From an uncultured Gammaproteobacteria bacterium (GTDB lineage: Bacteria > Patescibacteriota > Microgenomatia > UBA8517), in NCBI GenBank assembly GCA_964635715.1, contig CAZWNZ010000001.1:408616-472615 (forward strand): a DNA stretch of 64,000 nt, written 5' to 3'. The stretch's first letter is position 1; each line of letters begins with the position of its first letter. The notes beneath the pieces were generated by a model that worked only from the letters and a program-made list of their open reading frames with translations, was not told the origin of the DNA and searched no databases. Both the position numbers and the translations under genes were made by a program. This document shows positions 16,379-45,398 of the stretch, piece by piece.

Positions 16379-17833
16379 GTGGCTGATATTTATTTAACCA
16401 ATTCATTAACTAGGACAAAAGAAAAGTTTACTCCGTTAAAATCTAATGAAGTCGGCATGTACACTTGCGGTCCGACGGTTTACAACTATGCCACCATAGG
16501 GAATTTTAGAACTTATTTTAGTGCAGATATTTTACTACGTACTCTGAAATATAACGGTTATAAGGTTAACTACATAATGAATTTGACTGATGTAGGGCAT
16601 CTTACCGGAGATAATCTGGGAGATGCAGACACGGGAGAGGATAGGATGGTGAAAGAGGCGGAGAAGGAAAGGAAAAATGCATGGGATATTGCCAAAGAAT
16701 ATACAAATGCTTTTTTGACGGATTTTCATAAGCTTAATCTCGAAGATCCTGAGAACTTCGTTAAAGCAACAGACCACATAGAAGACCAGATTGATTTGGT
16801 TAAAAAGCTTGAAGGAAAAGGACTGACTTACAAAATTTCCGATGGAATATATTTTGACACAAAAACTTATGAGGAAAAAACTGGTTTTAGGTATGGTGAG
16901 CTTTCTAACCTTGATCAAATAAAAGAAGGGGCAAGAGTTGAAGTAAACCCTGAGAAAAAAAACCCAAGGGATTTTGCTTTATGGAAGTTCAGTTATAGGG
17001 ATGGAAGATCCTTCGACTCCGCCCAGGACGACGCTTCCCGTCGGCGCGACATGGAATGGGATTCGCCTTGGGGGGTTGGTTTCCCTGGTTGGCATATTGA
17101 GTGTTCTGCAATGAGTATGAAATATTTGGGCGAGACTTTCGATATTCATGTAGGCGGCGAAGATTTGAAGTCCACTCATCACCCAAATGAAATTGCTCAG
17201 AGCCAAGGGGCAACCGGTAAAAAATTTGTGGACTTTTGGATTCATGGTGCATTCTTAACCGTTGACGGGGGACGTATGGGTAAAAGTTTGGGAAATGCCT
17301 ATACAATTTCTGATTTAGAGAAAAAAGGATTTTCAGCATTAGACCTGAAATATTTTTATCTTTCAGGAAAATATAACGAACCAATTAATTTTACTTGGGA
17401 ATCACTGACTGCTGCTCAAAATGCTATGGATAAACTCAATTCTCAAATATCAAATCTTAGGTCTCAAAAAGGGCGAACTGTTCTTTCCGAAGAGAAGGAG
17501 ATAAAGATTGAAAATTATAGAAATGAATTTACGATAGCGATAAATGATGATTTAAATACACCGAAAGCCCTGGCTGTGCTTTGGTCAATGCTGGGGAGTA
17601 GTATTCCGTCAGAGGATAAATATGATTTAGCTATGAGTTTTGATGAAATATTAGGGTTGAATCTGGAATCTGGAATCTCGAATTTAGAGAATATAATCCC
17701 GGATAATGTAAAAGTTCTAATGGAAAAAAGGGAACAACTGAGGAAGGAAGGTAAATTTGAGGAAGCGGATAAAGTCCGAGATGAAATAACAAAAGCGGGG
17801 TATCAGGTATTTGATAAGCAAGTTAATAAGTGA
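16379..17833 (+). CDS. cysS: Cysteinyl-tRNA synthetase
   Basis: The class I HIGH region [17 protein letters not shown] is present. KMSKS-like MGKSLGN is present. The zinc site WHIECSAM is present. Confidence 0.9.
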
Positions 17834-18977: not shown

Positions 18978-19637
18978 ATGGAACAAAATAACCCTTCAAA
19001 TTTCAATGTAGTAGTTCCTGGTAAATCAGGTAGGTCAGGTAAAAAGGGACTGATAATTGGTGCAATAGTTGTTTTGTTTTTAGCAATCAGCATTCCGGCG
19101 GGAGTTTATTTGGTCAAACAACAGCAGGATATAAAAGAGAAAGCCCAGGAAGCTCTTGTTTGTCCGGCTGCGGAGGCCTGTCCTGTTGCAGGGGATCCCA
19201 CTCTTCTCAAAAGTTGTTATTCAGTGGTAACAGGAGGAGTTCCTGGGGAGTATAGCTGTTCAACAATTGCCAATGTGGGTACAACAGTTTTGTGTGGCTC
19301 TACATCATACTGCTGTCCATCTCTTGGTGCTTCCTGGACAACAAATCTGACACTGTGTGCAACCCCAACAGCCAGTCCTACACCAACAGAAACCCCAACA
19401 GTTAGTCCTACAGCAACCGCGTCTGCGACTGCTTCTGCCACACCTACTACGACAGCAACAGCAACAGCAACAGCTACATCCACTACTACTGCAACAACCA
19501 CTGCAACATCGAAAGCCACAGCTACATCTACCGCGACAGCGGCTCCAATTCCGGTTACAGGAGTAAATTGGCCAACGTTGGTTGGAACTGGTGTGGGGAT
19601 TTTGGTGATTGTTGGGTCAATACTTCTTGTATTATAA
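18978..19637 (+). CDS. Membrane-anchored surface protein with Cys-rich domain, Thr/Ala/Pro-rich linker and C-terminal IPVTG + hydrophobic anchor
   Basis: An N-terminal TM is present. Eight Cys lie in the domain. The TATATATSTTTATTTATS low-complexity linker follows. The C-terminus is APIPVTGVNWPTLVGTGVGILVIVGSILLVL. Confidence 0.55.
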   Translation: MEQNNPSNFNVVVPGKSGRSGKKGLIIGAIVVLFLAISIPAGVYLVKQQQDIKEKAQEALVCPAAEACPVAGDPTLLKSCYSVVTGGVPGEYSCSTIANVGTTVLCGSTSYCCPSLGASWTTNLTLCATPTASPTPTETPTVSPTATASATASATPTTTATATATATSTTTATTTATSKATATSTATAAPIPVTGVNWPTLVGTGVGILVIVGSILLVL

Positions 19638-22917: not shown

Positions 22918-22995
22918 TTGTGTTAAAATAGCCTCATGGGATTATCAGTTGGGATACTTATTTCACTGTCCCAACTTTTGATTTTAGATTCTTAG
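22918..22995 (+). pseudogene. ychF: Stranded ancestral ychF promoter plus first codons (ychF-prime) at attL
   Basis: The 21-nt TTGTGTTAAAATAGCCTCATG is identical to the folD promoter/start module. The ORF begins MGLSVGI, matching the YchF N-terminus MGxxxGIVGLPNVGKS. It diverges after codon 7 into a 20-codon ORF. Confidence 0.45.
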
Positions 22996-23061
22996 TCACC
23001 CTTCCTAAGGCTAATAAAGAGAGATTGATTCTTGAACGCAATCAACTAGGACAAATTATTC

Positions 23062-23655
23062 GTGCCGAAGTCCCAGGATTACCATATAAATATGCCCAGC
23101 AACAAAATTACTAAACAAAGGACAATCGAAGAAATCAGAGGTTCTCTAGAAAGCTCAGCTACTGGATACGATTCTACTTACATACTGAGAAAGGCTGACG
23201 AGGAAATATCAAAATGTAAAAAGGAACAACTGTATACTCCCGATACTGCTTATTACAAAGCAATGTCATTGTTCGAGTTTGATAAAGGAATTTTGTTACT
23301 CAATTCTCTACCAGACCTTCATGTAGTGTTTGCATTAGATTTTAATAAAAATCTTCAAAAAGAATATGATTGTAAAACACCATCTGAAAAGTCTTTAGCT
23401 GAAATAGTTACCCTCAACTTTATAAGAATATTGGAAACACAAAGAAAGATTAAAGATTGTCAAAAAAATGTTAGTACTAGATACGATATTCAATACATAA
23501 GCATATTAAGTAAGGAGTTAGATAGAGCTGAAAGACATTACCTGGCTTCACTGCAAGCCCTCAGGACGCTTAGAAACCCTTCTTTTGAAGTGAATATTAA
23601 AGCAAATAATGCTGTTGTAGGAAACAACCAAGCGGTGCAAGTTAAAAATGCTTAA
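23062..23655 (+). CDS. Hypothetical protein (element cargo)
   Basis: A 197-aa ORF with no recognised domain. Confidence 0.45.
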   Translation: MPKSQDYHINMPSNKITKQRTIEEIRGSLESSATGYDSTYILRKADEEISKCKKEQLYTPDTAYYKAMSLFEFDKGILLLNSLPDLHVVFALDFNKNLQKEYDCKTPSEKSLAEIVTLNFIRILETQRKIKDCQKNVSTRYDIQYISILSKELDRAERHYLASLQALRTLRNPSFEVNIKANNAVVGNNQAVQVKNA

Positions 23656-23683
23656 TGATTGTTAGCAATTTAGGTTAATTTAT

Positions 23684-24106
23684 ATGTTTAGCCTTCGATA
23701 CGGAAAAAGACCAGTAATAGAAGAATCTCAAAAGATTGGGGCGGGTGTATGTGTTAGAAACTTTTTGTTTGAAACGAAGAAGAAGTACAACCTTAACAGC
23801 GAAGTTGGCGTTAAGGATTTAATAGGTGATATGGAAATTGGAACAAATATCAATCTAAAACAGGATAACTATGGCAAAGTAGACTATTCAGAACCCAACA
23901 AGATCAAATTAACCTACTCAAAGTCTAATCTTAATAAGGGTTATATATTTTGGTTTATCTGTAACCTTTGCAGTAGGCGAGTGAAGTATCTATATTTCCC
24001 CCCAAACTCAACAGTTTTGGCTTGTAAGAACTGCCACAGGTTAGTCTATAATAAGCAGAATGAAAGTAAGAGATTCAGACCTTTCAGGAAGATGTTAGAG
24101 TTGTAA
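23684..24106 (+). CDS. Hypothetical protein with C-terminal CxxC...CxxC zinc ribbon
   Basis: The C-terminus carries CNLCSRR...CKNCHR. Confidence 0.45.
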   Translation: MFSLRYGKRPVIEESQKIGAGVCVRNFLFETKKKYNLNSEVGVKDLIGDMEIGTNINLKQDNYGKVDYSEPNKIKLTYSKSNLNKGYIFWFICNLCSRRVKYLYFPPNSTVLACKNCHRLVYNKQNESKRFRPFRKMLEL

Positions 24107-24115
24107 TTAAGCTAA

Positions 24116-24526
24116 ATGCAACGACATACCTTGAAGCCAATTCTGGTTTTCAAAGATTTTAATCTTCCTTCTGAACTTTGGGTTAATAAATCTGTAAATA
24201 TATACATAAATCACAAGGGAGAAATTTATTGTGACTACTTTGTTATTAAAGATTTTACAAGAACCGAGAACTTTAAACAGAAATACTGGTTTATAAAGCG
24301 GTATTTAGACAAAAAAAGAAAAGCCTATGATGTAACTGGTATTTATAACATAACAATTGGCGATTTGAGACAAATAATGTGGAGTAAGGACATCAAGTCA
24401 ATTTCAAGAAATAGAATAGAGGGAATCGTTCATAATGAGAACCAGATAGCAAATATAAAGGATGACACGATTCAGAGACTTAAGAAATATCTAGAAAAGA
24501 AATTATCGGAGAAAAGAAATGGCTAG
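24116..24526 (+). CDS. Hypothetical protein (136 aa)
   Basis: An ORF with no recognised domain. Confidence 0.4.
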   Translation: MQRHTLKPILVFKDFNLPSELWVNKSVNIYINHKGEIYCDYFVIKDFTRTENFKQKYWFIKRYLDKKRKAYDVTGIYNITIGDLRQIMWSKDIKSISRNRIEGIVHNENQIANIKDDTIQRLKKYLEKKLSEKRNG

Positions 24527-24575
24527 ATGGAGTTAGCCAACACCTCGACTCACTATTTATATTTTGGGTATATAA

Positions 24576-25439
24576 TTGAAGTTGATGGAAGAATCACCAA
24601 TTAAAAGGTTTTTTCGAGTGTTTTTGGTAATTCTTTACTGTGCTTCTTTCCTTTTTTCCGTTTTGATAGGTTTTAGCCTTCAATCTTTTTGGTTTTTTTT
24701 GATATTCTTCCTTATTAGCTGGTTGGTAATAGATATAGTTAACATTTCCACCAAGTACATTACCTCGGGAAAGACCTCAACAACAAAAAGCTGGATATAC
24801 CGAGGTTTCTTAATACTTTTTAACTACGACTCCTTTCTTGCACTTATAAAAAATGAACTTGATGAAGTAATGGCTGATTTTTATAGCGATTTCGTTGATA
24901 AGAAATTATCGGAGCTCATGAAAATCATTCCAAAGAACAAAATTGTCAATGTATTAAAAATGGATAAGGCAGCAAGTGAACAAGAGGAACAGGCTCTTTC
25001 AAAATTGGCAGAAATTTATAAACGAACCGGTAAAGATGAGAATTTTTTTGGCACCAAGGAAAGTTGGGAGTTGGACTTGGATACTCTCAAATCACAAAAT
25101 GAATACGCAAGACTCTCGAAACAAGCTAGGGGATTCCTAAACTTGACCTCGCCACTTATGGGTGATTTTGTTTTGTTAAATCATAAATTGGATAAGGGCA
25201 AGATAAGCCTGGAGAAAGTTTATTCCAAATTGCATAAGGAAAGTAAAAAAAGATACGACCAATTTTGTAAAGATTCTGTCAATTTTTCAGTATGGGTATC
25301 CTTGAGCAATGCTTTAATAAAAGCAAAAGAAAGTGGAGTCGCTTTTGACAAAGCCAAGATTAAGAACGAAGATATTAAGGAAGAGATACAAAGTTATCTA
25401 GCGGACCAGATTTCAACCGCAGAGTCTTTGGTAATTTAA
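24576..25439 (+). CDS. Hypothetical membrane protein (2 N-terminal TM + soluble domain)
   Basis: Hydrophobic N-terminal helices followed by a charged soluble region. Confidence 0.45.
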   Translation: MKLMEESPIKRFFRVFLVILYCASFLFSVLIGFSLQSFWFFLIFFLISWLVIDIVNISTKYITSGKTSTTKSWIYRGFLILFNYDSFLALIKNELDEVMADFYSDFVDKKLSELMKIIPKNKIVNVLKMDKAASEQEEQALSKLAEIYKRTGKDENFFGTKESWELDLDTLKSQNEYARLSKQARGFLNLTSPLMGDFVLLNHKLDKGKISLEKVYSKLHKESKKRYDQFCKDSVNFSVWVSLSNALIKAKESGVAFDKAKIKNEDIKEEIQSYLADQISTAESLVI

Positions 25440-25557
25440 GGTAAAGTTCTTCAGGTACTCACCAAAGATTCGGAATATTTTTGATGTATTTAATAAGAAG
25501 TAGTTCCACTCCACACCCTAACTCACTATATTTTATTTTGAGTTATAATTAACTATA

Positions 25558-26103
25558 GTGAAAAAGATACTTCTAATTCTGTTCATTTTGGTAGTAGTTA
25601 TCGCTGGGTTATTAGTTTATAAAAATATAACCTCAAACACACAAAATACAGAAATTACAGAAGAGCTAACGAAATGCGGACAGCAAATGGCTAATGAAAA
25701 TGGGAAAGGTGTGACAGATTATGAAGGAGTTGTGATACCCGTTGATTTTTCTTCAATGCCTGAGGCAAAACTTTTTTATACTAGGATTACTGAGACTGTG
25801 AAAGATGGTCCTAATTTCGCTAAACATTTTACCTTAGTCTCTTGGGGTTGTGGTACAGATTGTTTCGGATATTCGATTGTTGACACTAATACGGGGGCAA
25901 TAGTTGCTTATATTCCTTCTAATGAAGAGTATCATTTAAGATCAAGTTACAATTTAGACACTACTTATTTCGTTTTTGATCCCGTAAATGCAGGACAAGA
26001 AAGAAAATATTACAAAATGATTGAAGATGACAAAGGAAATGACCGATTGGAACTAGTATGTTCTGAAATCGCCAAAGAGGATATATATGGATTACCTGAA
26101 TAG
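25558..26103 (+). CDS. Secreted hypothetical protein
   Basis: An N-terminal signal/TM is present (MKKILLILFILVVVIAGLLV). Conserved Cys residues are present (WGCGTDCFGY). Confidence 0.45.
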   Translation: MKKILLILFILVVVIAGLLVYKNITSNTQNTEITEELTKCGQQMANENGKGVTDYEGVVIPVDFSSMPEAKLFYTRITETVKDGPNFAKHFTLVSWGCGTDCFGYSIVDTNTGAIVAYIPSNEEYHLRSSYNLDTTYFVFDPVNAGQERKYYKMIEDDKGNDRLELVCSEIAKEDIYGLPE

Positions 26104-26117
26104 TTTTATCTCCTAGA

Positions 26118-26321
26118 TTGGGGGTGATGTTTATGAAAAAAAGACTAACTCCGATACAACAAATTTTAGTAGGTATAGGTATTTACTTGTTGTCTTCAAT
26201 AATATCTTATCCAATCAACGCAGTATTTGAAGTTGTTGGAGCAATAGCATTTTTAAGCGGGTCAATAACATTAATAGTAAATTTTTTTAAGAAGAAAAAT
26301 AATAAAAAGTTATTGAATTGA
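26118..26321 (+). CDS. Small 2-TM membrane protein
   Basis: 67 aa with two hydrophobic helices and a basic tail. Confidence 0.35.
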   Translation: MGVMFMKKRLTPIQQILVGIGIYLLSSIISYPINAVFEVVGAIAFLSGSITLIVNFFKKKNNKKLLN

Positions 26322-26324
26322 AGT

Positions 26325-26552
26325 GTGGCAAGTTATAATATATGTATGACAATTATCCACGTTCGTATTCTGGGAATAGAGGGTAATTATCGTTTTTGGG
26401 TAAGCAGGGATCCATACGAGATAAATCCAACTCCATCATATGAATCCGAAAGTTTTTATGAAACCAAGAAGGAAGCTAAAGAGGCATTGGGTAGTTTTCT
26501 GAAAGACAAAAAAGAAGATTGGGGAAAGATTGATATTAGATGGTCTAAGTAG
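26325..26552 (+). CDS. Hypothetical small protein
   Basis: A 75-aa ORF. Its start lies 4 nt after the upstream stop. Confidence 0.3.
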   Translation: MASYNICMTIIHVRILGIEGNYRFWVSRDPYEINPTPSYESESFYETKKEAKEALGSFLKDKKEDWGKIDIRWSK

Positions 26553-26764
26553 ACAAGCTCCACTGCGACTCACGATACTTATATTAGATTTTCTTGTTAT
26601 TGCTTCTACTATCAATTTTTATAAGAAGTTCAAAATAATTTACTAAATTGTTGGCTACTTCTTGTGCTTCGGTATCTGAATAAACGACTCCATAGTCTTC
26701 ACGAAATATTTTTTGAAGGCTTTTGATTAGTTTTGGTTTGAAGCGCACAATTTATTTTGGCTAT

Positions 26765-27349
26765 TTAACTATATCCATATATCATCAGACCAACTATGAA
26801 CAGCACAGATATAACAGCAATAATATAAGCAAAAGTACTTGGTTTATCTGTTTGAACAACTACAGTATCGGCCTTTTTATCGTGAAAAGTTTGTTTTTCT
26901 TCATCTTTGCCCATATTCCAATAACCAATTCCAAAAAATAGGCCAGAAAGAATTTGTAGTAATGACCTCTTTAATGCTTGCCCACCTGACAGGTGAGACC
27001 TATCCTTTTTGTCCAATACAATAAGGTTTAACAAACTCTTGCCTGGTGTTCTAGACCAAGTTGAAAGAAAAAAAATACTATAGATGACATATCCAGTTGT
27101 AAATATTAAGCCGTAAGAATCATCTGACGGCTCTCCTTCAAATAACATCAGAATGATTATTAAAAGAATCAGCAGGATGGAGTAGTCAACACAATATGCA
27201 GCCAATCTAATCCAAAAACCAGCGTATGTTACGGCCTCTTTTTTATTTGGTAAATCTTTTTCTTCGTGGTTTTGGGAGAGCTTGTTACCACAGAAACGGC
27301 AGAACTTACTGTTGTCTGGTAACTCTTTCCCACAATATTTGCAAAACAT
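26765..27349 (-). CDS. Zinc-ribbon + RDD-family membrane protein
   Basis: The N-terminus is CKYCGKELPDNSKFCRFCGNKL. An RDD-like polytopic domain follows (RLAAYCVDYSILL..., RTPGKSL). Confidence 0.6.
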   Translation of the reverse strand: MFCKYCGKELPDNSKFCRFCGNKLSQNHEEKDLPNKKEAVTYAGFWIRLAAYCVDYSILLILLIIILMLFEGEPSDDSYGLIFTTGYVIYSIFFLSTWSRTPGKSLLNLIVLDKKDRSHLSGGQALKRSLLQILSGLFFGIGYWNMGKDEEKQTFHDKKADTVVVQTDKPSTFAYIIAVISVLFIVGLMIYGYS

Positions 27350-27354
27350 AATAA

Positions 27355-27732
27355 TTATTTCTTTCCTTCCTCTTTTTTAGATTCTTCCTCAGCTTTTTCT
27401 AAAAGAGACTCTGGATTCATTTTATACCAAAAACCTCTAATAAGTTTGTAAATCCCGTAAATCATTGCTCCCCATAACACATAGTATGTCCCACCTTCCG
27501 AAGCGAAGAGCCAACCTCCACCAGTTATTACTAATCCAATAACAAACCAAATAACACCTTGCTTCATTTCACCCTCTGCTAAAGCTTTAGCTTCTTCGAT
27601 AAGTGATTGTTTTTTATTCTTGAAATATCTATCAACTGAGCCTTCCTCTTCGTTTTTAGTCATCCCTTTTCCACATTTCGAGCAGAACTTTGCATCTGAA
27701 TCGTTGTTTTGACCACAATTAGTACATTCCAT
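27355..27732 (-). CDS. Zinc-ribbon protein with two TM helices
   Basis: The N-terminus is CTNCGQNNDSDAKFCSKCGKGM. Two hydrophobic helices follow. Confidence 0.55.
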   Translation of the reverse strand: MECTNCGQNNDSDAKFCSKCGKGMTKNEEEGSVDRYFKNKKQSLIEEAKALAEGEMKQGVIWFVIGLVITGGGWLFASEGGTYYVLWGAMIYGIYKLIRGFWYKMNPESLLEKAEEESKKEEGKK

Positions 27733-27734
27733 AT

Positions 27735-28394
27735 TTATTTCCTATACTTAGATTCTGTTATCCCACCTAAATAACCCCAAAATATAAGGATAAAAACATC
27801 GGTTTTAATGCGTTCGATTAGCTCGTTTGGCAAATCTTTCACGGAATCGGATGAATCTAGTATAGTATTTAACTCATATTCAAAGAATCTGTTCATCGAA
27901 TGTTCAAGGTCAGGTAAAAATTTTTTTTGATGCTCTTCGAATTTTTGGGCTATTAAAGATTGCCACTCTTTGATAAATGGCTCAAGTTCTATGTGCTTAG
28001 GAGTTTTCAAATCCTTATTTTTTAGTAAAGCCTCAGCCATCCAGAACCAATAACCTCCACTAGCACACCATCCATAAACATTTTTTAACGTTTCTATTAC
28101 TTTATAGGGTTGTTTATTTAGCGAGTCCTTATTGTCTTGAATAAAATTCTCAAACTGGTTTGTAGAGATTCTTTTTATCAGTTCCCAAACTTCATTAGAA
28201 GATAAGTCTTCGTAGACTTTTCGCTCATCACCTGTAGAATCGTATATCTCAGCAAATTTATCCCAAAGGTCCACATTCTTTTTTGGAGCAGAAGTATCTT
28301 TTTTTGTTTTAACCTCTTTATTCACTTGCTCACCACAATAACAACAAAATTTACTATCAGGGTCTATCTGTTTATGACAATTATTACAGTCCAT
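27735..28394 (-). CDS. Zinc-ribbon protein, cytoplasmic alpha-helical domain
   Basis: The N-terminus is CNNCHKQIDPDSKFCCYCGEQV. No TM is predicted. Confidence 0.5.
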   Translation of the reverse strand: MDCNNCHKQIDPDSKFCCYCGEQVNKEVKTKKDTSAPKKNVDLWDKFAEIYDSTGDERKVYEDLSSNEVWELIKRISTNQFENFIQDNKDSLNKQPYKVIETLKNVYGWCASGGYWFWMAEALLKNKDLKTPKHIELEPFIKEWQSLIAQKFEEHQKKFLPDLEHSMNRFFEYELNTILDSSDSVKDLPNELIERIKTDVFILIFWGYLGGITESKYRK

Positions 28395-28989
28395 AATCTG
28401 CTCCTTCTATTTCCCAAACCCACCAATAGTCACCCTGTGGGTAAAAGGTTAGGGGAACCTCAAAACTAAATGCTCCATTAGATACAGCTCCGCTTTCAAT
28501 GATGGTGTTTCTGGTGTCAAAATGCTTTTTTAAGGCTTCATCGTAGTAAAAATCAAGTCTTACCTTTACATTCCGAGCAGCTTTTGAATAGGTGTTTTTA
28601 AGTATTCCTGTAAAGTAACTTTCTCCAGCATCGTCGTACAGAATTTCATAATCCGTTATAGTTAAGTAGCTTATGGGGAAGTTTGTTGGCTCAGAGACTG
28701 ATTGCTCGCTTGTAATGTTTTCATCGGTCGGTATTGCGGCAAGTATAAGTATTCCCACAAAACCCAGCCCCCCCAACACCAAAACACCGATAATTATATT
28801 TTTAAGGGAAACACCTTTCTTCTTAGGTTTGAAAATTATATCGTCAAGGTCTTCAATTTGCTCGTGTAAAGTTTTAGCTTCGCTTTTTTCGGATGCTCCA
28901 CTTTTTTTAGAAAGATCATAACCACAGTTCTGGCAATATTTACTTTTTTCTAAATTACTATAATCGCAATCGGGACATTTTGTCTTCAT
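28384..28989 (-). CDS. Zinc-ribbon, single-TM protein with extracytoplasmic domain
   Basis: The N-terminus is CPDCDYSNLEKSKYCQNCGYDL. A TM follows (IIIGVLVLGGLGFVGILILAAI), then a ~110-aa C-terminal domain. Confidence 0.55.
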   Translation of the reverse strand: MKTKCPDCDYSNLEKSKYCQNCGYDLSKKSGASEKSEAKTLHEQIEDLDDIIFKPKKKGVSLKNIIIGVLVLGGLGFVGILILAAIPTDENITSEQSVSEPTNFPISYLTITDYEILYDDAGESYFTGILKNTYSKAARNVKVRLDFYYDEALKKHFDTRNTIIESGAVSNGAFSFEVPLTFYPQGDYWWVWEIEGADYGL

Positions 28990-28992
28990 AAT

Positions 28993-29760
28993 TTATTTTA
29001 CACCAAAACTTTCTCGCCAAAAACCTATAAGATTTCTAATTCTATTTGTTGTTAGGGGGTGATCTCCCAACAACTCACTAAACTTAACAGAAGTTCTGTT
29101 TGCTGTTTTTATTTGTGATACATATCCCTTAATATCTAGTTTTTCATAGAGAACTTTCCCTATGGATATTTTTATGAGTGCTGAAATTGCACTATCCACA
29201 TCTTTTGTCGCAATCAAACCGCATCTGTCACAGGAGTATTCAGTTTTCCTATTCCAAAATCCAAAAATTAAATTACTTAAGAAATTGTTGCTTCCGATCG
29301 GTACTAATAGGGTAGAAATTTTTGTATGGCCTGCTTTGTAATGTCCCAACTCGTGCCCAATAACAAAATTTAACTCCTTTTGATTTAATTGTTCTACTAA
29401 CGCAGATGTTAGAACAACGGTGCAACTTGTAATGCCGAGTGTGTACGCTTGAAGGTATGGGTCTTGAATGATGTATAGTGAGGCCCTGTTTATTCCAAGT
29501 TTTTCAGCGTTAGTCCTAAAAGTATCGTAAATATCAGGATATTGTTTTGAATGAACTCTAATGGCATTTCCCAAATATTGTGATTGTTGAAGGTGAACAT
29601 AGATTAGGGCGCCTATCAAAAGCAGAACAAAAATATAGATATTAAATGTATAAAGAAAATAACTTATTAGAGAAATAATCAACAAGGTCACTATCAAAGC
29701 GATATTTTCGTAAGGAACACGAAACATCCAAGATTCTATTGTTGTTTTTCTATCTTCCAT
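28993..29760 (-). CDS. M48-family zinc metallopeptidase (HtpX-like), membrane-anchored
   Basis: Two N-terminal TMs are present. An HExxH motif is present (VIGHELGHYKAGH). A downstream E/D and the C-terminal GDHP...RI are typical of M48. Confidence 0.7.
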   Translation of the reverse strand: MEDRKTTIESWMFRVPYENIALIVTLLIISLISYFLYTFNIYIFVLLLIGALIYVHLQQSQYLGNAIRVHSKQYPDIYDTFRTNAEKLGINRASLYIIQDPYLQAYTLGITSCTVVLTSALVEQLNQKELNFVIGHELGHYKAGHTKISTLLVPIGSNNFLSNLIFGFWNRKTEYSCDRCGLIATKDVDSAISALIKISIGKVLYEKLDIKGYVSQIKTANRTSVKFSELLGDHPLTTNRIRNLIGFWRESFGVK

Positions 29761-29959
29761 CTTGCTTTTTAGTATTAGAGTCCTTTCTGGAAAACATTTT
29801 GTAAACCAGATAAGGGAAAAATATAAAAGATGTAAAAGTTAATAAGGTAAATAGAGGTGGCCTTTCGATACCAAAAAAGACAAAGACAAGGGTACCCAGT
29901 GCCCAAAGGACAAACGAGAGAAAAACCCCTATTATTATAGAACCTATGACTTTAATCAT
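29750..29959 (-). CDS. Small 2-TM membrane protein
   Basis: 69 aa and hydrophobic. Overlaps the M48 gene start. Confidence 0.4.
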   Translation of the reverse strand: MIKVIGSIIIGVFLSFVLWALGTLVFVFFGIERPPLFTLLTFTSFIFFPYLVYKMFSRKDSNTKKQDGR

Positions 29960-29960
29960 A

Positions 29961-30263
29961 TTAACTTTTTCTTTCTTTTATTGAATAAGCTGATATAAAA
30001 AATAAGACTGCCGAGATTAAATCTATTCCAACCCAAGAACTCTTATTCATATAAACAGGAATCAGGGGATTGAAAAGAAAGGCTAGGGCACCAAAGATAA
30101 GCACCCAACCTGTTAACTTTGATTTTGAGAACCCAATTGCGTTAAAAATTGCTACTCCGCAAACAACCCATCTGAGGATTATGTAATAGTCGTATGGCCA
30201 AATGTTTAATATTCCCAAGAGCAGAAGGACCCCAGAAATAATTGAAGGCCATTTAATATTCAT
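29961..30263 (-). CDS. Small 3-4 TM membrane protein (first gene of minus-strand cargo operon)
   Basis: 100 aa and hydrophobic. Confidence 0.45.
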   Translation of the reverse strand: MNIKWPSIISGVLLLLGILNIWPYDYYIILRWVVCGVAIFNAIGFSKSKLTGWVLIFGALAFLFNPLIPVYMNKSSWVGIDLISAVLFFISAYSIKERKS

Positions 30264-30399
30264 ATTACATATTTATAAACTGCGAACTAGCCAAATTTTA
30301 CACCCTTTTATTAGAAAAATCTAAGAAATTCGAAATCATTAGTGGTAAAATACAAATATAAACTGCCCGTGATAAACGGGTTTTTTTTGTAAATGTAAT

Positions 30400-31530
30400 A
30401 TGTCAAAGAAAGATGAAGAGATATTGTTGGCTGATGAACTCAGGAAACGGATAGATAATCTTAAGATAATTGATAAGCCTAGTCCATTTTTTAGGGAGGT
30501 TGCACGAACGGCTGAATGGATGGGTGAGATATTGTTATTTGAGCAACCACTTTTTGCCCTAGACCTTCAAAGTAAAAAGCGAGATAAAGAATCATTGCAG
30601 ATATTGAAGGATATGCACTCCAAAGGCAGAGTCATTTGGTCTGCTATAAAAAAAATACCAATTACTCTTGAAAAGACACGGCCAGAAGTTCAACAATCGC
30701 TTGCGAGTTTGCATCAGTATTACGAAATGCCACACCCTCAGTACGGAATCGGGCTATATCACAGTTTGAGGATAGTGGTTGAGTATCTTATTTCTAGTAA
30801 CAATTCAAAAGGGCTTGAGAAATTTGTAGACAGGAATAACCCCGTTAAGTATCCGAATTTTCGAGGTGAAATGTATGATCTACTAATTGCTTACAATAAG
30901 AAACAGGATTTAATAAAAAAAGAACTCGCCCTTAGTCTTTGGGGTGCTTGGGACAATCTTAAGTATGTAAGCTACCTTGCAGGAATAGATAACGACTATC
31001 CACAACTTGAAGATTGGGCTAAGGTTTTTACAAAGGATGAATACTTTGTACATCTTCACAAAGTATCAGATTACTTATTTGATTGGCTGGTGTTAGGTAA
31101 AAAAGGTGACAAATTAAGTGGTGACCCACTGCTCGAATCTGCTGTTTGGGATAAGAAATTTAATTTTGAAATTGACCCTAACACCGAAATTGATAATGCA
31201 AATTTTGGACAGTATGGAGTAGTTAGGTTTTACCCAGGTAAATCTCCAACTAAAGTGGAAGGTGATAGTAAACTAAACGCAAATCAATTATTTCTTAAAA
31301 AATTGTTTGAAGCTGGCGAGAAAGGTGTATCTAGAAAAGAGCTGGCCGAGTATATGGATATAAGAGAGAATGACATTAAAGCCTATGTTAACGGGGCCGA
31401 TAAAGTTTTTCGAAATAGTTACAAAAAACAAAAAGTTAAAGCAAATATTTACGTATCTGCAGATAGCGAGATAATTAGGTTGATTGTTATACCTGTCGAA
31501 AGTGAGAATAATCAAAATACCGAAGCTTAG
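30400..31530 (+). CDS. Hypothetical protein with C-terminal winged-helix-like region
   Basis: 376 aa. The C-terminus is LFLKKLFEAGEKGVSRKELAEYMDIREND. Confidence 0.45.
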   Translation: MSKKDEEILLADELRKRIDNLKIIDKPSPFFREVARTAEWMGEILLFEQPLFALDLQSKKRDKESLQILKDMHSKGRVIWSAIKKIPITLEKTRPEVQQSLASLHQYYEMPHPQYGIGLYHSLRIVVEYLISSNNSKGLEKFVDRNNPVKYPNFRGEMYDLLIAYNKKQDLIKKELALSLWGAWDNLKYVSYLAGIDNDYPQLEDWAKVFTKDEYFVHLHKVSDYLFDWLVLGKKGDKLSGDPLLESAVWDKKFNFEIDPNTEIDNANFGQYGVVRFYPGKSPTKVEGDSKLNANQLFLKKLFEAGEKGVSRKELAEYMDIRENDIKAYVNGADKVFRNSYKKQKVKANIYVSADSEIIRLIVIPVESENNQNTEA

Positions 31531-31566
31531 CTAATCTTCTTTTTATCTTATAACTAATCTTCTCGC

Positions 31567-31839
31567 TTGTTTTATGCTTCAGGCAAGATGTTAAATGTTA
31601 ATGAAGATAGATGGAAGAGCAAAGATTTTTATTTGAGTTGCGTTATTCGTGCCTCTGGGTTTGAACTCATAACCCTTGAAAGGAAAGAACACGACTTCAG
31701 CGTTTTTGTTTTTGACATTTCTCCTCAAAAGGCAGAAGAAATAATTTCTCTTCACTGGTCTAAACAGTTGAAACTTCCCACCAAGGATTTAGTTGAAGCA
31801 ATCAATGAATTAAGAACAAGGTTAAAAAGTGGAGTCTAA
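31567..31839 (+). CDS. Hypothetical small protein
   Basis: A 90-aa ORF. Confidence 0.35.
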   Translation: MFYASGKMLNVNEDRWKSKDFYLSCVIRASGFELITLERKEHDFSVFVFDISPQKAEEIISLHWSKQLKLPTKDLVEAINELRTRLKSGV

Positions 31840-32038
31840 TATGGAAAATTTAAATGTTATCGAAAAAGCATTGGAACTTTATGACGAAGTCGACAATTTG
31901 GCTAAGGACTGGCTAATAAAAAGTTGGAAACTAAAGGACGAGGATAAGGAGATTGCAAGATTGTATTACCAAAAGGCTTGTAAAAAGCGATTAGAACTAG
32001 CGAAAAGATTGGAGGGATTATGCAACCAGACAAAATAA
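31829..32038 (+). CDS. Hypothetical small protein
   Basis: A 69-aa helical ORF that overlaps its neighbours. Confidence 0.3.
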   Translation: MESNMENLNVIEKALELYDEVDNLAKDWLIKSWKLKDEDKEIARLYYQKACKKRLELAKRLEGLCNQTK

Positions 32039-33351
32039 CATTTGATCCAGCAAAAGATATTAAGGATTCGATTTATGAGATTACTAAAGTTGAAAAAGAA
32101 TGGGAAGAAATAACCTCGGAAGACATACTAAAAGTATTAGGTCAGACAATAAAGAAAGATGATTTTAATAAACTCCTAGTCTTTCTGTGCCAGCTTTTAG
32201 CATATTCGGAAAGTAGTCAGATAAATCTTTCTTTTAATGCTCCAAGCAGTAGTGGCAAAAGCTATTTGGCTTTGGAAATCGCAGACTTATTTCCCAAAGA
32301 AGATGTCCTTAAACTTGGTTATGCTAGCCCGACTTCCTTTTTCCATACAACCAGCGAATATTCCAAAGAAAAGAATGGCTATGTAGTGAATCTTGAAAGG
32401 AAAATTGTGGTTTTTCTTGATATGCCACACTCATTACTTTTACAGCATTTAAGACCGCTTCTAAGCCATGATGAAAAGGAAATATTAGTTAAGATTACTG
32501 ACAAATCAGCCAAGGGGGGAATAAGAACAAAAGACATTTTTATTAGAGGTTATCCTGCAGTTCTTTTTTGTTCGGCAAACTTTAACTTAGATGAACAAGA
32601 GTTAACAAGGTTCATCCTTCTTAGCCCAGAAACCAACCAAGAAAAGATAAGAGAAGCAATTTACGAGCGGGTAAAAAAGGAAGCAGATAAAGAAGGGTAT
32701 TTTAAACTCTTAAACGAAAACCCAGACAGACAAGCCTTGAAACAGAGAATTGTTGATGTCAGAGATTCTCTTGTTAGTAAAATTGATTTAGGTAACCCAG
32801 AAAAATTACTTCAGATGTTCTATGAACGCAATGAGATTCTTAAACCTAGACATTCAAGGGACATTCAACGAATCGCTTCCTTGGCCAAGGCATTTGCCTT
32901 ACTTAACCTTTGGACCCGAGAAAGAGTGGGGGATGCAATTAAGACAAATGAAAAGGACCTTGAAAATGCTTTTAAGATTTGGGACGAGATAAGTATTGCA
33001 CAAGATTTAGGGGTTTCTCCTTATATTCTTAATCTCTACAAAGAAGTTATTGTCCCCGTTTATGAAGAAAAAGGTAAAGCAGGACTAACCAGACAGGAGG
33101 TTTTGAAAAAACATTTTGAGGTTTATGGAAGACATATAGCCGATTGGCAGTTGAGGCAAGAAATAGTGCCAATAATGAAGACTTCTGGACTTATTTCTGA
33201 AGAACAGGACCCGCTTGATAAAAGAAAACTTCTTATTTACCCCCTAGTACAGCTCACTACATCTGGAGCTCAAGAAATAGTGAGTGAGAGGGGGGAGGAG
33301 GGTGTAACAGAAGCTCAAATCGAGGATATTTTTGGAGTAAAACCTATATGA
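32020..33351 (+). CDS. P-loop NTPase, possible primase/helicase-like replication protein
   Basis: A Walker A-like NAPSSSGKSYLALEIADL is present. Walker B-like VVFLDM is present. The C-terminal winged-helix region resembles the phage/plasmid primase C-terminal NTPase. Confidence 0.45.
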   Translation: MQPDKITFDPAKDIKDSIYEITKVEKEWEEITSEDILKVLGQTIKKDDFNKLLVFLCQLLAYSESSQINLSFNAPSSSGKSYLALEIADLFPKEDVLKLGYASPTSFFHTTSEYSKEKNGYVVNLERKIVVFLDMPHSLLLQHLRPLLSHDEKEILVKITDKSAKGGIRTKDIFIRGYPAVLFCSANFNLDEQELTRFILLSPETNQEKIREAIYERVKKEADKEGYFKLLNENPDRQALKQRIVDVRDSLVSKIDLGNPEKLLQMFYERNEILKPRHSRDIQRIASLAKAFALLNLWTRERVGDAIKTNEKDLENAFKIWDEISIAQDLGVSPYILNLYKEVIVPVYEEKGKAGLTRQEVLKKHFEVYGRHIADWQLRQEIVPIMKTSGLISEEQDPLDKRKLLIYPLVQLTTSGAQEIVSERGEEGVTEAQIEDIFGVKPI

Positions 33352-33557
33352 ACAAACCACTTTTACCAATAATTACATTTAAGGATATTGTTTCGGATGG
33401 AAAGAGGGTTGAAACTGCCTATTTTAGGATATTTGAGATAGCGAGGAAAAATATTTTGATGAAAAGGATGTTGACAAATCCAATGTCGCAGAAGTACACT
33501 GAAATACATAATGAAAAATCAATATCTAACAATCGAGGAGGTGGCCAAAATGCTTAG
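33348..33557 (+). CDS. Hypothetical small protein
   Basis: A 69-aa ORF. It partly overlaps the better-supported Xis-like ORF in another frame. Confidence 0.25.
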   Translation: MNKPLLPIITFKDIVSDGKRVETAYFRIFEIARKNILMKRMLTNPMSQKYTEIHNEKSISNNRGGGQNA

Positions 33558-33678
33558 AGTTAATAAAAGAACTGTATATAGATTGGCCGTAAAAGGAGAA
33601 ATTCCAGCTTTCAGGTTTGGCAGGTCTTGGAGGATAGATTCTAATAAGTTGGATGGAATATTTAAGAGAAAGAAATGA
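33511..33678 (+). CDS. Excisionase/AlpA-like HTH DNA-binding protein (55 aa), not in ORF track
   Basis: Translation gives MKNQYLTIEEVAKMLRVNKRTVYRLAVKGEIPAFRFGRSWRIDSNKLDGIFKRKK, a classic Xis/MerR-type HTH_17 fold. Its stop overlaps the recombinase start (ATGA). Confidence 0.6.
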   Translation: MKNQYLTIEEVAKMLRVNKRTVYRLAVKGEIPAFRFGRSWRIDSNKLDGIFKRKK

Positions 33679-35327
33679 AAAGCGATAATCAAATACAGGA
33701 ACCGATGAATGTTGCTCTTTATGCAAGGGTTTCAACTGGTAGGCAGGAGAATGAACAGACCATTGAATCCCAATTAGATGAAGTTAAGAGAAAAATAGCG
33801 GATGATGGTAATACTTTATTACCTCAAAACATCTTTATAGACGATGGATGGAGCGGAGAACTTCTAGCAAGGCCTTCACTTGATAACTTAAGGGATGCAG
33901 TTAAAGATAATAGTTTTGAAGCAGTTTATGTTTATGATAGAGGTAGGCTTTCCAGGACCTTCTTTCACCAGGAGCTTGTTATAAGTGAACTAAGCGATTT
34001 AGGAATCCAATTTATTTCACTTCATGATGTTAAAGCCACAACTCCTGAGGAGAAAGTCTTGCAATCAATGCAGGGGGTATTCCACGAATACGAAAGAATT
34101 AAGATTGCAGAGAGAATGAGAAGGGGAAAAATGTATCACGCAAAGGAAGGGAAAATAATAAATGGTCAGGCTTTGTATGGTTACTCTTATAAGAAAAGGG
34201 AGGATGGAAATGTAGACTACCTTATAAACGATGACGAGGCGGGAGTAGTAAGAAAGATTTGGAATTGGTTTGGAAATGATAATCTAGCCGTTCATACAAT
34301 CCAGAGGAGATTATTTGACCTTAAAATTATGCCCCAGAAGGGTAAATCTGATTTTTGGTCCAAAAGTGTTATTACCAGACTTCTTAAACAGGAAACCTAT
34401 GTGACAGGTAAGGCTTTTTATAATAAATCGGAAGCGGTTGTAGCCAAACACCCGATGAACAATGGTAAGTATAAGAAAGTTAAGAAAAGTAGTAGGAAAG
34501 TAAAGTCTCGTGAAGACTGGATTCCTTTTGATGTCCCCAGAATAATTACAGATTATTCACTTTATGAGAAGGTTCAAAAGAAACTTGAATATAACAGAGT
34601 CTATGCAAACAAAAAATCTAAATACGACTACCTACTTTCTGGTTTAATTTATTGTGGTTGTGGGAACAAAAGAGTTGGGGACGGTTGCAGCAAAAACGGG
34701 CACTTTTATTACAGGTGCATTGATAGGATTAGAAGCGGGGTATACGAGAGGAAATGCAAATCAAGTGGTATAAACGCTGCGATTTTGGATGGTCTGCTCT
34801 GGAAAGAACTAAGAAAAAAGCTTTTTAGTTACCCAATAATGAAGAAATATGCCGAAAAGTGGATTAAATCAGTATCGGTTTTAAGTAGTGAAGACTTGCT
34901 TGAGAAGCGAAGACTTAATGAAATGATAGTAAAGACTACAGAAGAAGAAAATCGTTATTCAAAGGCTTACGGAGTTGGAACTTTAGAATTCGACCAATTC
35001 CAGAATTTAATGAAAGACGCCAAAAAGCGAAGAGTTTCTTATCAAAAACAATTATCAGAATTGGCCAATAAATCGGCAGAAGTTAATGTTCAGATAGAGG
35101 TCGATGAGCTATTAGCGGAAGTGATGAGTGTGGTTAAGGATATAGATTTTAGTGATAAATTTAGGGTAATTCGAGATATAATAGACAAAGTTATCGTAAC
35201 AGAAAGGAGCGGTGCAGAAATATGTGCGCATTTACCATTACCAGTCACAATCACCGAAAAGTTGGGATATGAGCCTGAGCGTAGGGATTGTTGGCTTGCC
35301 AAATGTAGGCAAGAGCACTCTTTTTAA
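33675..35327 (+). CDS. Large serine recombinase (serine integrase)
   Basis: The N-terminal resolvase catalytic domain is VALYARVSTGRQENEQTIESQ. A recombinase domain and a zinc-ribbon domain follow (CGCGNKRVGDGC...YYRC). It has a coiled-coil C-terminus. The 3' end spans attR and overlaps ychF by 59 nt. Confidence 0.85.
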   Translation: MKSDNQIQEPMNVALYARVSTGRQENEQTIESQLDEVKRKIADDGNTLLPQNIFIDDGWSGELLARPSLDNLRDAVKDNSFEAVYVYDRGRLSRTFFHQELVISELSDLGIQFISLHDVKATTPEEKVLQSMQGVFHEYERIKIAERMRRGKMYHAKEGKIINGQALYGYSYKKREDGNVDYLINDDEAGVVRKIWNWFGNDNLAVHTIQRRLFDLKIMPQKGKSDFWSKSVITRLLKQETYVTGKAFYNKSEAVVAKHPMNNGKYKKVKKSSRKVKSREDWIPFDVPRIITDYSLYEKVQKKLEYNRVYANKKSKYDYLLSGLIYCGCGNKRVGDGCSKNGHFYYRCIDRIRSGVYERKCKSSGINAAILDGLLWKELRKKLFSYPIMKKYAEKWIKSVSVLSSEDLLEKRRLNEMIVKTTEEENRYSKAYGVGTLEFDQFQNLMKDAKKRRVSYQKQLSELANKSAEVNVQIEVDELLAEVMSVVKDIDFSDKFRVIRDIIDKVIVTERSGAEICAHLPLPVTITEKLGYEPERRDCWLAKCRQEHSF

Positions 35328-36372
35328 TGCGCTTCTAAAAAAGCAACAGGCTTATGTCGCAAACTTCCCGTTCGCGACGATTGAACCGAATATTGGAATA
35401 GTTCCGGTTCCTGACCCACGCTTGGCCAAGCTCGCAGACGTAGTAAAGAGCTCAGATAATCTTGACCATTTTCCACCGGAAGTCCCGGCTACCGTTCAGT
35501 TTGTAGATATCGCAGGGCTTATCGCTGGTGCTTCAAAAGGCGAGGGATTGGGGAATAAATTCCTAAGTCACATAAGAGAAACAAACGCAATTTGCTACGT
35601 TTTGCGAGCTTTTACCGATCCGGATGTTGTTCGCCAGGGTGTGAAAGAACCGGTTGCTGATTTCGAAGTTCTGGAAACCGAGCTTGCCCTTGCCGATCTT
35701 CAAACTTTGGAAAAACAGAAAGATCCGGGGAATACTCCGGATAAAGATCAGATAAAAAAGTGGCAAACTATCCAGAGATTAAAAAAGACATTAGAAGGCA
35801 GTACCATGGTTCGAACTATCGAACTGTCAGAAGAGGAAAATAAAATAGTTAATGAGTTGGGACTTTTAACGGCAAAACCAATACTTGTTGTGTTAAATGT
35901 TGACGAAAAGCAAGTAGCTAGTAGTCAGAATCTAGAATCTAGTTTTGCGAAGGAAATTGGGGTCGCTGAAAATCAGGTGATAGCCATCTGTGCCAAAACA
36001 GAAAGCGAGCTTTCAGAACTTTCAGAAGATGATCAGAAAATTTACATGCAGGACTTGGGAATTGACAAGTCCGGTCTTGAGAGACTAATTCAGAAAGCTT
36101 TTACAACTCTTGGCCTTGCCACATTTTTAACGGCAGGAGAAAAGGAAGTCAGAGCATGGACTATTCAAGCGGGCATTAACGCTCAGGAGGCGGCTGGGGT
36201 GATTCACACTGATTTTATTAAAAAATTTATCAAAGCCGACGTAGTCAGATTTGAGGAGTTCATTAAATCTGGCGGCTGGAAAGCCGCCCGTGAATTAGGT
36301 AAAGTTCGTTCCGAGGGCCGCGACTACATAATGCAAGATGGGGAAGTTGTGGAATTCAAGATTGGGGCGTAA
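35269..36372 (+). CDS. ychF: Ribosome-binding ATPase YchF (Obg family)
   Basis: MSLSVGIVGLPNVGKSTLFNAL is present. A TGS domain is present. The C-terminal YchF domain is present. The first 5-6 codons are supplied by the element. Confidence 0.9.
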   Translation: MSLSVGIVGLPNVGKSTLFNALLKKQQAYVANFPFATIEPNIGIVPVPDPRLAKLADVVKSSDNLDHFPPEVPATVQFVDIAGLIAGASKGEGLGNKFLSHIRETNAICYVLRAFTDPDVVRQGVKEPVADFEVLETELALADLQTLEKQKDPGNTPDKDQIKKWQTIQRLKKTLEGSTMVRTIELSEEENKIVNELGLLTAKPILVVLNVDEKQVASSQNLESSFAKEIGVAENQVIAICAKTESELSELSEDDQKIYMQDLGIDKSGLERLIQKAFTTLGLATFLTAGEKEVRAWTIQAGINAQEAAGVIHTDFIKKFIKADVVRFEEFIKSGGWKAARELGKVRSEGRDYIMQDGEVVEFKIGA

Positions 36373-45311: not shown

Positions 45312-45398
45312 GGTGGCCAAGGAGAGAGTCGAACTCTCACTGGGTGTTAGCCCAACACGATTTTGAGTCGTGCGCGTCTGCCATTCCGCCACTCGGCC
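45312..45398 (-). tRNA. tRNA-Leu (anticodon CAA), type II with long variable arm
   Basis: The reverse complement is GGCCGAG-TGGCGGAATGGCAGACGCG-CACGA-CTCAAAA-TCGTG-TTGGGCTAACACCCAGT-GAGAGTTCGACTCTC-CTTGGCC-ACC. The acceptor stem is 7 bp with one G-U. The anticodon loop is CT-CAA-AA. CC of the CCA end is encoded. Confidence 0.85.

Follow-up and report, generated by a model that had tools for sequence, protein, structure and literature searches.

The closest analogue among described systems is the staphylococcal cassette chromosome element SCCmec, in which large serine recombinases are combined with an operon for an MCM-like helicase, insertion takes place at the end of a housekeeping gene and composite islands accumulate (PMC7581432). 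This study deals with a stretch of 64,000 nucleotides (hereafter the window; positions are those of the window, and features are on the plus strand unless stated otherwise) and with an integrative element of 12,333 bp that was mapped in it at the ychF gene. We consider it probable that the genes at 30400-35327 represent the replication and recombination operon of this 12.3-kb integrative plasmid-like element, and that its host is a Woesebacteria-like member of Patescibacteria.

Comparison with SCCmec revealed both likeness and difference. A large serine recombinase and an MCM-like helicase are found in both, represented by CcrAB or CcrC and Cch in SCCmec and here by the integrase (Int) and a 443-aa ATPase named D443; islands lacking an integrase gene at the ychF site of this element family compare with the composite islands of SCCmec. 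SCCmec targets the 3′ end of rlmH, whereas the target here is the 5′ end of ychF and replacement codons are supplied by the element. Unlike Cch, D443 does not match the DUF927 profile and is structurally nearer to true MCM proteins than to Cch. The A-family polymerase primase of SCCmec (CCPol-MP) is absent here, whereas relatives of the element carry a fused DnaG-type primase. Furthermore, a single integrase occurs together with an HTH_17 protein, and the host belongs to Patescibacteria.

Other known systems share single traits with this locus. MCM genes have been recruited by archaeal proviruses, by plasmids and by a Bacillus cereus prophage. In phiRv1-type systems a large serine integrase acts with an Xis-like directionality factor; here, too, a small gene of an excisionase-family helix-turn-helix (HTH) protein, Xis55, lies immediately upstream of the large serine integrase gene, but a second conserved small open reading frame (ORF), E69, is equally placed and Xis55 is a candidate for this role. 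Location of attP inside a gene whose product is changed by integration is known from the Myxococcus phage Mx8 (int to intX), from SSV1-type integrases and from integration-dependent immunity in mycobacteriophages; a literature search on Mx8 intX gave nothing usable. As in these cases, the crossover at this locus falls within a coding sequence of the element and the C-terminus of the product would differ by state. Unlike these cases, which involve tyrosine integrases or repressors, this locus has a large serine integrase, and its target gene in the host is rebuilt by the same crossover.

The insertion site in ychF

As delimited by the mapped ends, attL and attR, the element spans about 22952-35284 (12,333 bp) and the genes at 30400-35327 are its right-hand third, the replication and integration end. 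The left end was found through short matches between the int/ychF junction and the region upstream of the gene for p197, a conserved element protein. The left end, attL (22920-22985), holds the native −10 box of ychF, TAAAAT (22924-22929), the displaced ychF ATG at 22936 and codons for MGLSVG, followed by the P′ arm of the element. The stretch 22924-22956 reads TAAAAT-N6-ATG GGA TTA TCA GTT GGG ATA, that is, the −10 box and then the N-terminus of YchF (MGLSVGI), and the predicted left crossover is the GG of the Gly6 codon (22951/22952). The right end, attR (35240-35310), holds the P arm with AAAAGTTGGGA (35257-35267), a replacement ychF start ATG at 35269 (MSLSVG) and the crossover GG (35284/35285), after which host ychF continues. 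The P′ arm in attL carries the 11-nt sequence TCCCAACTTTT at 22969-22979, which is the reverse complement of AAAAGTTGGGA, the latter standing just before the ychF ATG at attR. Host ychF (35269-36372) is restored by the five replacement codons and overlaps the 3′ end of int by 59 nt; the same layout, with the int ORF reaching into ychF, was found in at least 10 loci with Int proteins 50-95% identical.

Joining of the halves gave a predicted empty attB junction, in which GTGTTAAAATAGCCTCATGGGATTATCAGTTGG is followed by GATTGTTGGCTTGCC, and the reconstructed attB encodes intact MGLSVGIVGLPNVGKST. The predicted attP junction runs from ...GAGCGTAGG into GATACTTATTTCACTGTCCCAACTTTTGA; the reconstructed attP contains perfect 11-nt inverted arms with a 34-nt spacer, and the GG of the Gly6 codon lies precisely at its centre of dyad symmetry. 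The traits of attachment sites of large serine recombinases are thus present: inverted arms around a central dinucleotide, hybrid flanks at attL and attR, and an empty attB. The empty site is considered settled because a related locus without the element (L100; related loci are given L numbers) carries an uninterrupted ychF with the same flanking synteny. The 19 nt upstream of ychF in L100 (gtgttaaaatagcctcatg) are identical to 22920-22938 of the window, the gene order (cysS, HAD, response regulator, kinase, ychF, rpsF, ssb) matches the window flanks, the cysteinyl-tRNA synthetases (CysRS) are 80% identical, and BLAST homology between window and L100 resumes at 35281 on the right side. An attL remnant of the form M-[SGN]-(S)-L-[SEK]-V-G followed by the arm also occurs in at least 15 other contigs, namely L001, L004, L014, L025, L083 and about 10 further metagenome contigs. 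The composition profile revealed a step in GC content at attR (35200-35700), with values of about 0.34-0.40 for the element and 0.45-0.485 for ychF. At the level of sequence, these junctions show insertion by a large serine integrase at the Gly6 codon of ychF, five replacement codons at the right end of the element that keep ychF intact, and a displaced native ychF promoter with the first codons at the left end, facing p197 and a second element gene, p140.

Other candidates for the ends and the target were rejected. A generic repeat search for att sites gave chance-level pairs only, and the P-loop motif search of the window found no second copy of the ychF N-terminus, the remnant being 5-6 codons only. 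The sole tRNA of the window, at 45312, is unrelated to the element. The native ychF promoter looks leaderless: in the window remnant, in L100 (about 17650-17670) and in about 10 other attL sites, 6 nt separate the end of TAAAAT from the ATG. In L087 and L094 the P′ arm is joined to unrelated sequence (..ggtagaggctacctacactgtcac) with no ychF remnant, which could be a secondary site or a rearrangement.

The host is assigned to Patescibacteria (candidate phyla radiation) as a Woesebacteria-like bacterium, and the closest named CysRS to that of the window belongs to Ca. Woesebacteria (65-69% identity). A two-component system and a 265-aa ORF left of the element are host genes. A further host ORF of 219 aa (18978-19637) contains a long Thr/Ala/Ser/Pro-rich repeat and a C-terminal membrane anchor and is a surface-protein candidate; its repeat cross-matches a region of L100.

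Integrase, excisionase-family protein and the predicted Int tail

All ORFs listed by the initial annotation are present on the plus strand at their positions, and its serine integrase was confirmed by domain matches. Int (33675-35327) has 550 aa in the integrated state, of which residues 1-537 are element-encoded, while the last 13 residues and the stop come from out-of-frame host ychF DNA. Pfam domains Resolvase (E 7.6e-28), Recombinase (E 2e-10) and Zn_ribbon_recom (E 2.7e-9) all scored above their cut-offs; Int also matched the integrase family phrog_95 in PHROGs (E 4e-75) and the catalytic domain of TP901-1 integrase (E 1.6e-8), and its serine motif YARVST occupies residues 16-21.

The 55-aa ORF that had been proposed as an excisionase-type HTH protein, Xis55 (33511-33678), indeed belongs to HTH_17 (E 3.7e-16) and TIGR01764 (E 2e-15), both above cut-offs. 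Its stop overlaps the int start codon as described earlier, in the tetranucleotide ATGA at 33675-33678, and the protein is conserved in about 19 loci. Analysis of the same interval revealed a further conserved ORF that had been absent from the initial annotation, E69 (69 aa, 33348-33557), which lies between helicase and Xis55 genes and overlaps the D443 stop by ATGA and the Xis55 ORF by 47 nt. E69 shows 51-88% identity in 10-11 loci. Xis55 is a candidate directionality factor for Int by its family and position, and E69 is an alternative candidate for the same role. Chance is excluded as the source of this arrangement, since at least 10 independent loci show the order helicase, 69-aa ORF, Xis, Int, ychF.

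The attP site lies inside the 3′ end of int, and therefore the circle would encode a 590-aa Int as against 550 aa in the integrated state. The reconstructed circle extends int in frame by 53 codons (22953-23111). The coding segment concerned (22953-23114) has no start codon of its own in the integrated state; after excision it would be in frame with int and would add the 53-aa tail DTYFTVPTFDFRFLVTLPKANKERLILERNQLGQIIRAEVPGLPYKYAQQQNY, followed by a stop. The tail peptide follows the consensus FT[VI]PTFDF.F..[IL]PK[AP]NKER.I[IL]ER[DN].LG[RQ]I[IV], and in at least 14 diverged elements its frame runs for 40-55 codons without a stop. We infer from these frames two state-specific isoforms of Int: one of 590 aa in the circle, with the conserved 53-aa tail, and one of 550 aa in the integrated element, with a host-derived 13-aa tail. 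The tail would bring about a state-dependent difference in the activity, directionality or stability of Int.

Segments of this kind were also seen without an integrase. L088 (5831-7283), L087 (1402-2900), L093 and L095 contain an attL remnant and a conserved Int-tail segment 1.2-1.4 kb from ychF, without int or helicase genes; the small island of L088 has an HNH-like 187-aa gene between the attL remnant and ychF, and in L087 a further tail-like segment is present in diverged form (HFTAPQFEF). These islands at the ychF site may represent decayed copies or tandem accretions, or they may lack int because they are mobilised in trans. The locus L003 (3226-5900), labelled Methanofastidiosum, carries a helicase 95% identical to that of the window, an int split into 325 and 172 aa and a ychF 65% identical; probably this is a bacterial contig that was mis-binned and whose integrase is decaying.

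The MCM-like ATPase, its relatives and the presumed replication operon

D443 (32020-33351) is the presumed replicative helicase of the element. The Walker motifs given in the initial annotation were found at 32239-32262 (Walker A) and 32407-32424 (Walker B), and the predicted structure supports the C-terminal winged helix it had proposed, at about 33010-33249; a TRF motif resembling an arginine finger occupies 32605-32613. In an alignment of 36 members G79 and K80 (Walker A), D134 (Walker B), T196-R197-F198 and several lid arginines are invariant. The AlphaFold2 (AF2) model of D443 has a pLDDT of 78.6 and a pTM of 0.78. Structural comparison of the AAA+ core gave MCM proteins as the clearly best-scoring neighbours, followed by RavA (15.7), BchI (15.2), BrxL (11.2), the SCCmec helicase Cch (11.1) and ComM (11.0). 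Strand pairs at 113-124 and 154-176 of the model lie where the helix-2 insert and pre-sensor-1 hairpins of MCM are expected, as judged by position; K80, D134 and T196-R197-F198 may likewise correspond to MCM motifs by their position in the model. On its modelled fold, D443 is considered an AAA+ ATPase of MCM-like type that carries a winged helix.

Homologues of D443 number more than 1,500; they are about 50-60% identical and were found in metagenome-assembled genomes (MAGs) labelled Patescibacteria, Planctomycetota, Omnitrophota and others, with a few DPANN archaea. Many of them have 600-745 aa and N-terminal Toprim domains. One homologue (P0067) contains a CxxC...CxxC zinc ribbon and the Toprim motifs EGxxD and DxD, followed by a D443-like part, and four loci encode a short helicase with a Zn_ribbon_DnaG protein as a separate gene product ahead of it. 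The full-length relatives resemble T7 gp4 and P4 alpha in that zinc ribbon and Toprim primase are joined to a ring-helicase module in one polypeptide. The helicase module is, however, MCM-like AAA+, as against RecA-type of superfamily 4 (SF4) in T7 gp4 and superfamily 3 (SF3) in P4 alpha, and the window protein lacks the primase part. A replicative-helicase role is the best reading of D443 because of its fold and because of the fusion to a DnaG-type primase in most relatives. Of the primase/helicase-like NTPase proposed earlier, a replicative NTPase of the element is thus very probably retained, while the primase half does not apply to the window protein. In the precomputed annotation of close D443 homologues PF27228 (MTBMA_p00010_2nd) is listed and marked 'weak'; literature searches gave nothing usable for the locus tag MTBMA_p00010 or for DUF5659.

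ORFs were clustered from 82 related loci together with the window (83 loci, mainly from Patescibacteria). Besides the helicase, a large serine integrase was present in 67 loci, a DUF5659 gene directly upstream of the helicase in 57, p140 in 53 and a 65-aa protein in 30; in about 30 loci the helicase co-occurs with p197 or with another protein that takes its position. The usual gene order is a variable gene, DUF5659, a small ORF, Toprim-MCM, a p197-like gene, p140 and Int, while the cargo differs. The branch that targets ychF is marked by a short helicase, by C69 before it, by E69 and Xis behind it, and by p197 and p140 beyond attP. In each of the loci L039 and L047 a further gene of the helicase family (616 and 603 aa) lies less than 10 kb away and on the other strand, and apparently more than one element of the family can reside close together.

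The genes ahead of D443 in the window follow the same plan. A376 (30400-31530), the 376-aa helical protein of the variable slot, has only 7 homologues among 5.8 billion proteins. The earlier description of it as a winged-HTH protein is plausible and weakly supported: a probable C-terminal winged HTH comprises residues about 294-368, the C-terminal 75 residues form a helix-helix-helix-hairpin arrangement, and local Foldseek matches were obtained to the winged helices of ScpB and RPC39 (E about 0.4). The AF2 model has a pLDDT of 61.8 overall and of 80-89 in the C-terminal helices, and A376 is a candidate origin- or operator-binding specificity factor. B90 (90 aa, 31567-31839, TTG start) is a DUF5659 protein (Pfam E 6.2e-6, 26.4 bits against a cut-off of 23.6). 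C69 (69 aa, 31829-32038, GTG start) is a small helical protein with 7 relatives by phmmer, and it precedes short, Toprim-less helicases; no similarity was found that would make it a remnant of the Toprim-helicase linker. Profile scans (Pfam, PHROGs, NCBIfam) gave no significant family for A376, C69 or E69, and neither the variable upstream-slot proteins nor the accessory proteins f4 and f8 had a Pfam match. The four ORFs of 376, 90, 69 and 443 aa had been described as coupled by overlaps of 10-19 nt, which holds for two of the three junctions (11 nt between the 90-aa and 69-aa ORFs, 19 nt between the 69-aa and 443-aa ORFs); the 376-aa ORF is separated from the 90-aa ORF by a gap of 36 nt, or 57 nt if the latter starts at its first ATG.

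A divergent control region (30264-30399) precedes the first gene of the operon. It contains an extended −10-like box, TGgTAAAAT, at about 30343-30351 and a leader hairpin, CCCGTGATAAACGGG, followed by a T run, at 30366-30390. The hairpin has an RNA folding energy of −14.1 kcal/mol (z −3.45) and a terminator-like match, and its sequence is identical in L001, L002, L004 and L083, even ahead of an unrelated downstream gene; in the promoter and terminator scan the counts were otherwise at shuffle level. A module of about 35 nt (CCAAATTTTACACCC..TTT..CAG.AAAATCTAAGAAA) is present once in the window (30264-30399) and two or three times, before different small genes, in related elements (L001 7852-7922 and 8524-8628; L004 5803-5874, 6762-6792 and 7912-8022), and it resembles a promoter or operator cassette that has been used repeatedly. 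The interval between the genes for A376 and DUF5659 (31528-31563) contains a 13-nt direct repeat in two copies, TAGCTAATCTTCT and TAACTAATCTTCT, spaced by 23 nt, which is a weakly supported candidate binding site; in L001, which has a different upstream protein, ATATGAC occurs three times at the matching position.

Cargo, rival explanations and significance

The remaining genes of the element were also compared with the related loci. p197 (23062-23655, start probably ATG 23092) is a conserved element protein that co-occurs with the helicase in 13-16 loci and has no Pfam or PHROG match. p140 (23684-24106), a small zinc-ribbon protein with invariant C93, C96, C114 and C117, is a core gene of the element family; it is represented by 460 clusters in a library of 1.84 billion proteins and belongs to no Pfam family. 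Four orphan cargo ORFs of 136, 287, 181 and 75 aa (24116-26552) have no significant family. The cargo block on the minus strand (26765-30263) is conserved in L083. Four consecutive genes of the block (26765-28989, minus strand) encode proteins that each begin with a CxxC...CxxC zinc ribbon, and one of these proteins also has an RDD membrane domain; genes for an M48 peptidase and a DUF6804 protein follow, and a 69-aa membrane protein is likewise encoded in the block. Two cargo families of the related loci resemble, by motifs alone, a type III restriction-modification pair and a reverse transcriptase.

No capsid, terminase, portal or tail family was detected among 21 element ORFs scanned in PHROGs, 16 of them also in Pfam, a search that divergent virion proteins may escape. 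This agrees with the initial annotation, which had recognised no structural phage genes, and an integrative plasmid-like element is favoured over a complete prophage because no virion genes were detected; the size of 12.3 kb, the att sites and the mapped empty site agree with its proposal of an integrative plasmid-like element. In the proposed mechanism Int together with Xis55, or with the adjacent E69, would excise the element as a circle, which would be replicated with the help of the MCM-like AAA+ helicase, while the DUF5659 protein, C69 and A376 would serve as accessory or origin-specificity factors. This subfamily would have lost the helicase-fused Toprim primase of most relatives, and priming would thus fall to host DnaG or to an unrecognised protein.

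Several results weigh against a self-replicating element with an MCM-like helicase. D443 has no sequence-profile match to MCM or any helicase family in Pfam, and a PDB-sequence profile search with E up to 1 returned no MCM chain. Compared with archaeal and eukaryotic MCM proteins, D443 lacks the N-terminal OB/Zn domain, its AAA+ core being preceded by about 60 mostly helical or disordered residues where relatives have the zinc ribbon and Toprim primase; its Walker B motif, FLD(M/Q)PH, is not DExD-like and lacks the usual acidic pair. No recognisable primase was found in D443 or elsewhere in the element. No origin was found either: an origin-like iteron or AT-rich region had been suggested near 31530-32020, but Tandem Repeats Finder, the composition profile and short-seed repeat searches gave no iteron array or marked AT-rich block there or in other intergenic regions, the two-copy 13-nt repeat at 31528-31563 being the only repeat. 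The model of A376 is of low confidence, the use of an HTH_17 protein as directionality factor for a serine integrase is an assumption, and the functional role of the Int tail is purely inferred. For some short MAG contigs the taxon label (archaea, Gammaproteobacteria) may result from wrong binning. Finally, a search with the attP pattern and a P′-arm scan found no circular attP junction in IMG/VR or in the metagenome contigs of JGI, which is a weak negative as excised forms are rare in assemblies.

Among the rival explanations, a phage satellite survives best and is nevertheless regarded as unlikely. Such a satellite, of the type of phage-inducible chromosomal islands (PICI) or Staphylococcus aureus pathogenicity islands (SaPI), would have its own helicase and depend on a helper virus for packaging and transfer, with p197 and p140 serving to exploit the helper. 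Size (10-13 kb) and content (int, xis, a self-replication helicase and small conserved genes) are similar to those of satellites, the Rep proteins of SaPIs are self-loading helicases (PMC7581432), and no conjugation genes that would explain transfer otherwise were found among the scanned element ORFs. On the other hand, no small terminase, capsid-remodelling or packaging-related family was detected, no helper is known, the att pattern was not found in IMG/VR, and a tblastn search with D443 gave no match among the 50,697 phage records of INPHARED. The plasmids of PLSDB gave no tblastn match to D443 either.

It is considerably less probable that the AAA+ protein is a non-replicative ATPase for defence, remodelling or target selection, of BrxL, MoxR, MuB or TnsC-like type, carried as island cargo. 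MCM proteins score clearly best in the structural comparison, and a zinc ribbon and Toprim primase are part of the same polypeptide in most family members; moreover, the cargo varies between loci, but this gene stands next to int as the invariant core in each of the 83.

A decayed prophage remnant, fixed and no longer mobile, is very improbable. The lack of circular forms in assembled contigs, the split int of L003 and the small islands without int at the same site would be compatible with decay, but all core genes in the window are intact with their invariant residues kept, the compact layout recurs in many lineages in elements 50-95% identical, close host relatives differ in the presence of the element, and no phage structural remnants were found. 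The assignment of D443 to the SF3 primase-helicase NTPases of P4-alpha/D5 type, as suggested initially, is equally improbable and was rejected, since scans with Pfam, PHROGs and NCBIfam gave no match to Primase_Cterm, D5_N or related SF3 families at E up to 0.1 (nor to DUF927 or MCM) and the SF3 fold is not the best structural match (the large T antigen of JC virus scores only 8.8).

The integrative plasmid-like element with a replicative MCM-like helicase is thus the preferred reading, and it belongs to a large family for which no description was found. A wider joint reading is put forward tentatively, its chances falling somewhat short of even. Its first part is that these elements constitute an undescribed large family of integrative replicons that belong to Patescibacteria and possibly to DPANN archaea and Planctomycetota as well. 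The hallmark of the family would be a new primase-helicase architecture, in which an MCM-like AAA+ helicase bearing a winged helix is fused to a zinc ribbon and Toprim primase of DnaG type. The second part is that the 590-aa and 550-aa isoforms of Int in the ychF branch form an inherent switch, either between integration and excision or in the stability of Int. The crossover would in this joint reading also put ychF under element transcription and place the host ychF promoter before p197 and p140.

Most Patescibacteria, a group with tiny genomes, are uncultured, and very little is known of their mobile elements. An element that is compact, encodes a helicase of its own and has defined att sites as well as a defined target (codon 6 of ychF) offers a candidate chassis for genetic tools in Patescibacteria, and it supplies a serine integrase with a predictable and highly conserved target sequence. 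The combination of an MCM-like helicase with a bacterial-type primase in most relatives bears on the mixing of archaeal-type and bacterial-type replication modules in mobile elements. If true, the state-dependent C-terminus of Int would constitute a simple and testable mechanism of directionality for large serine integrases, enzymes that have found wide use in genome engineering.

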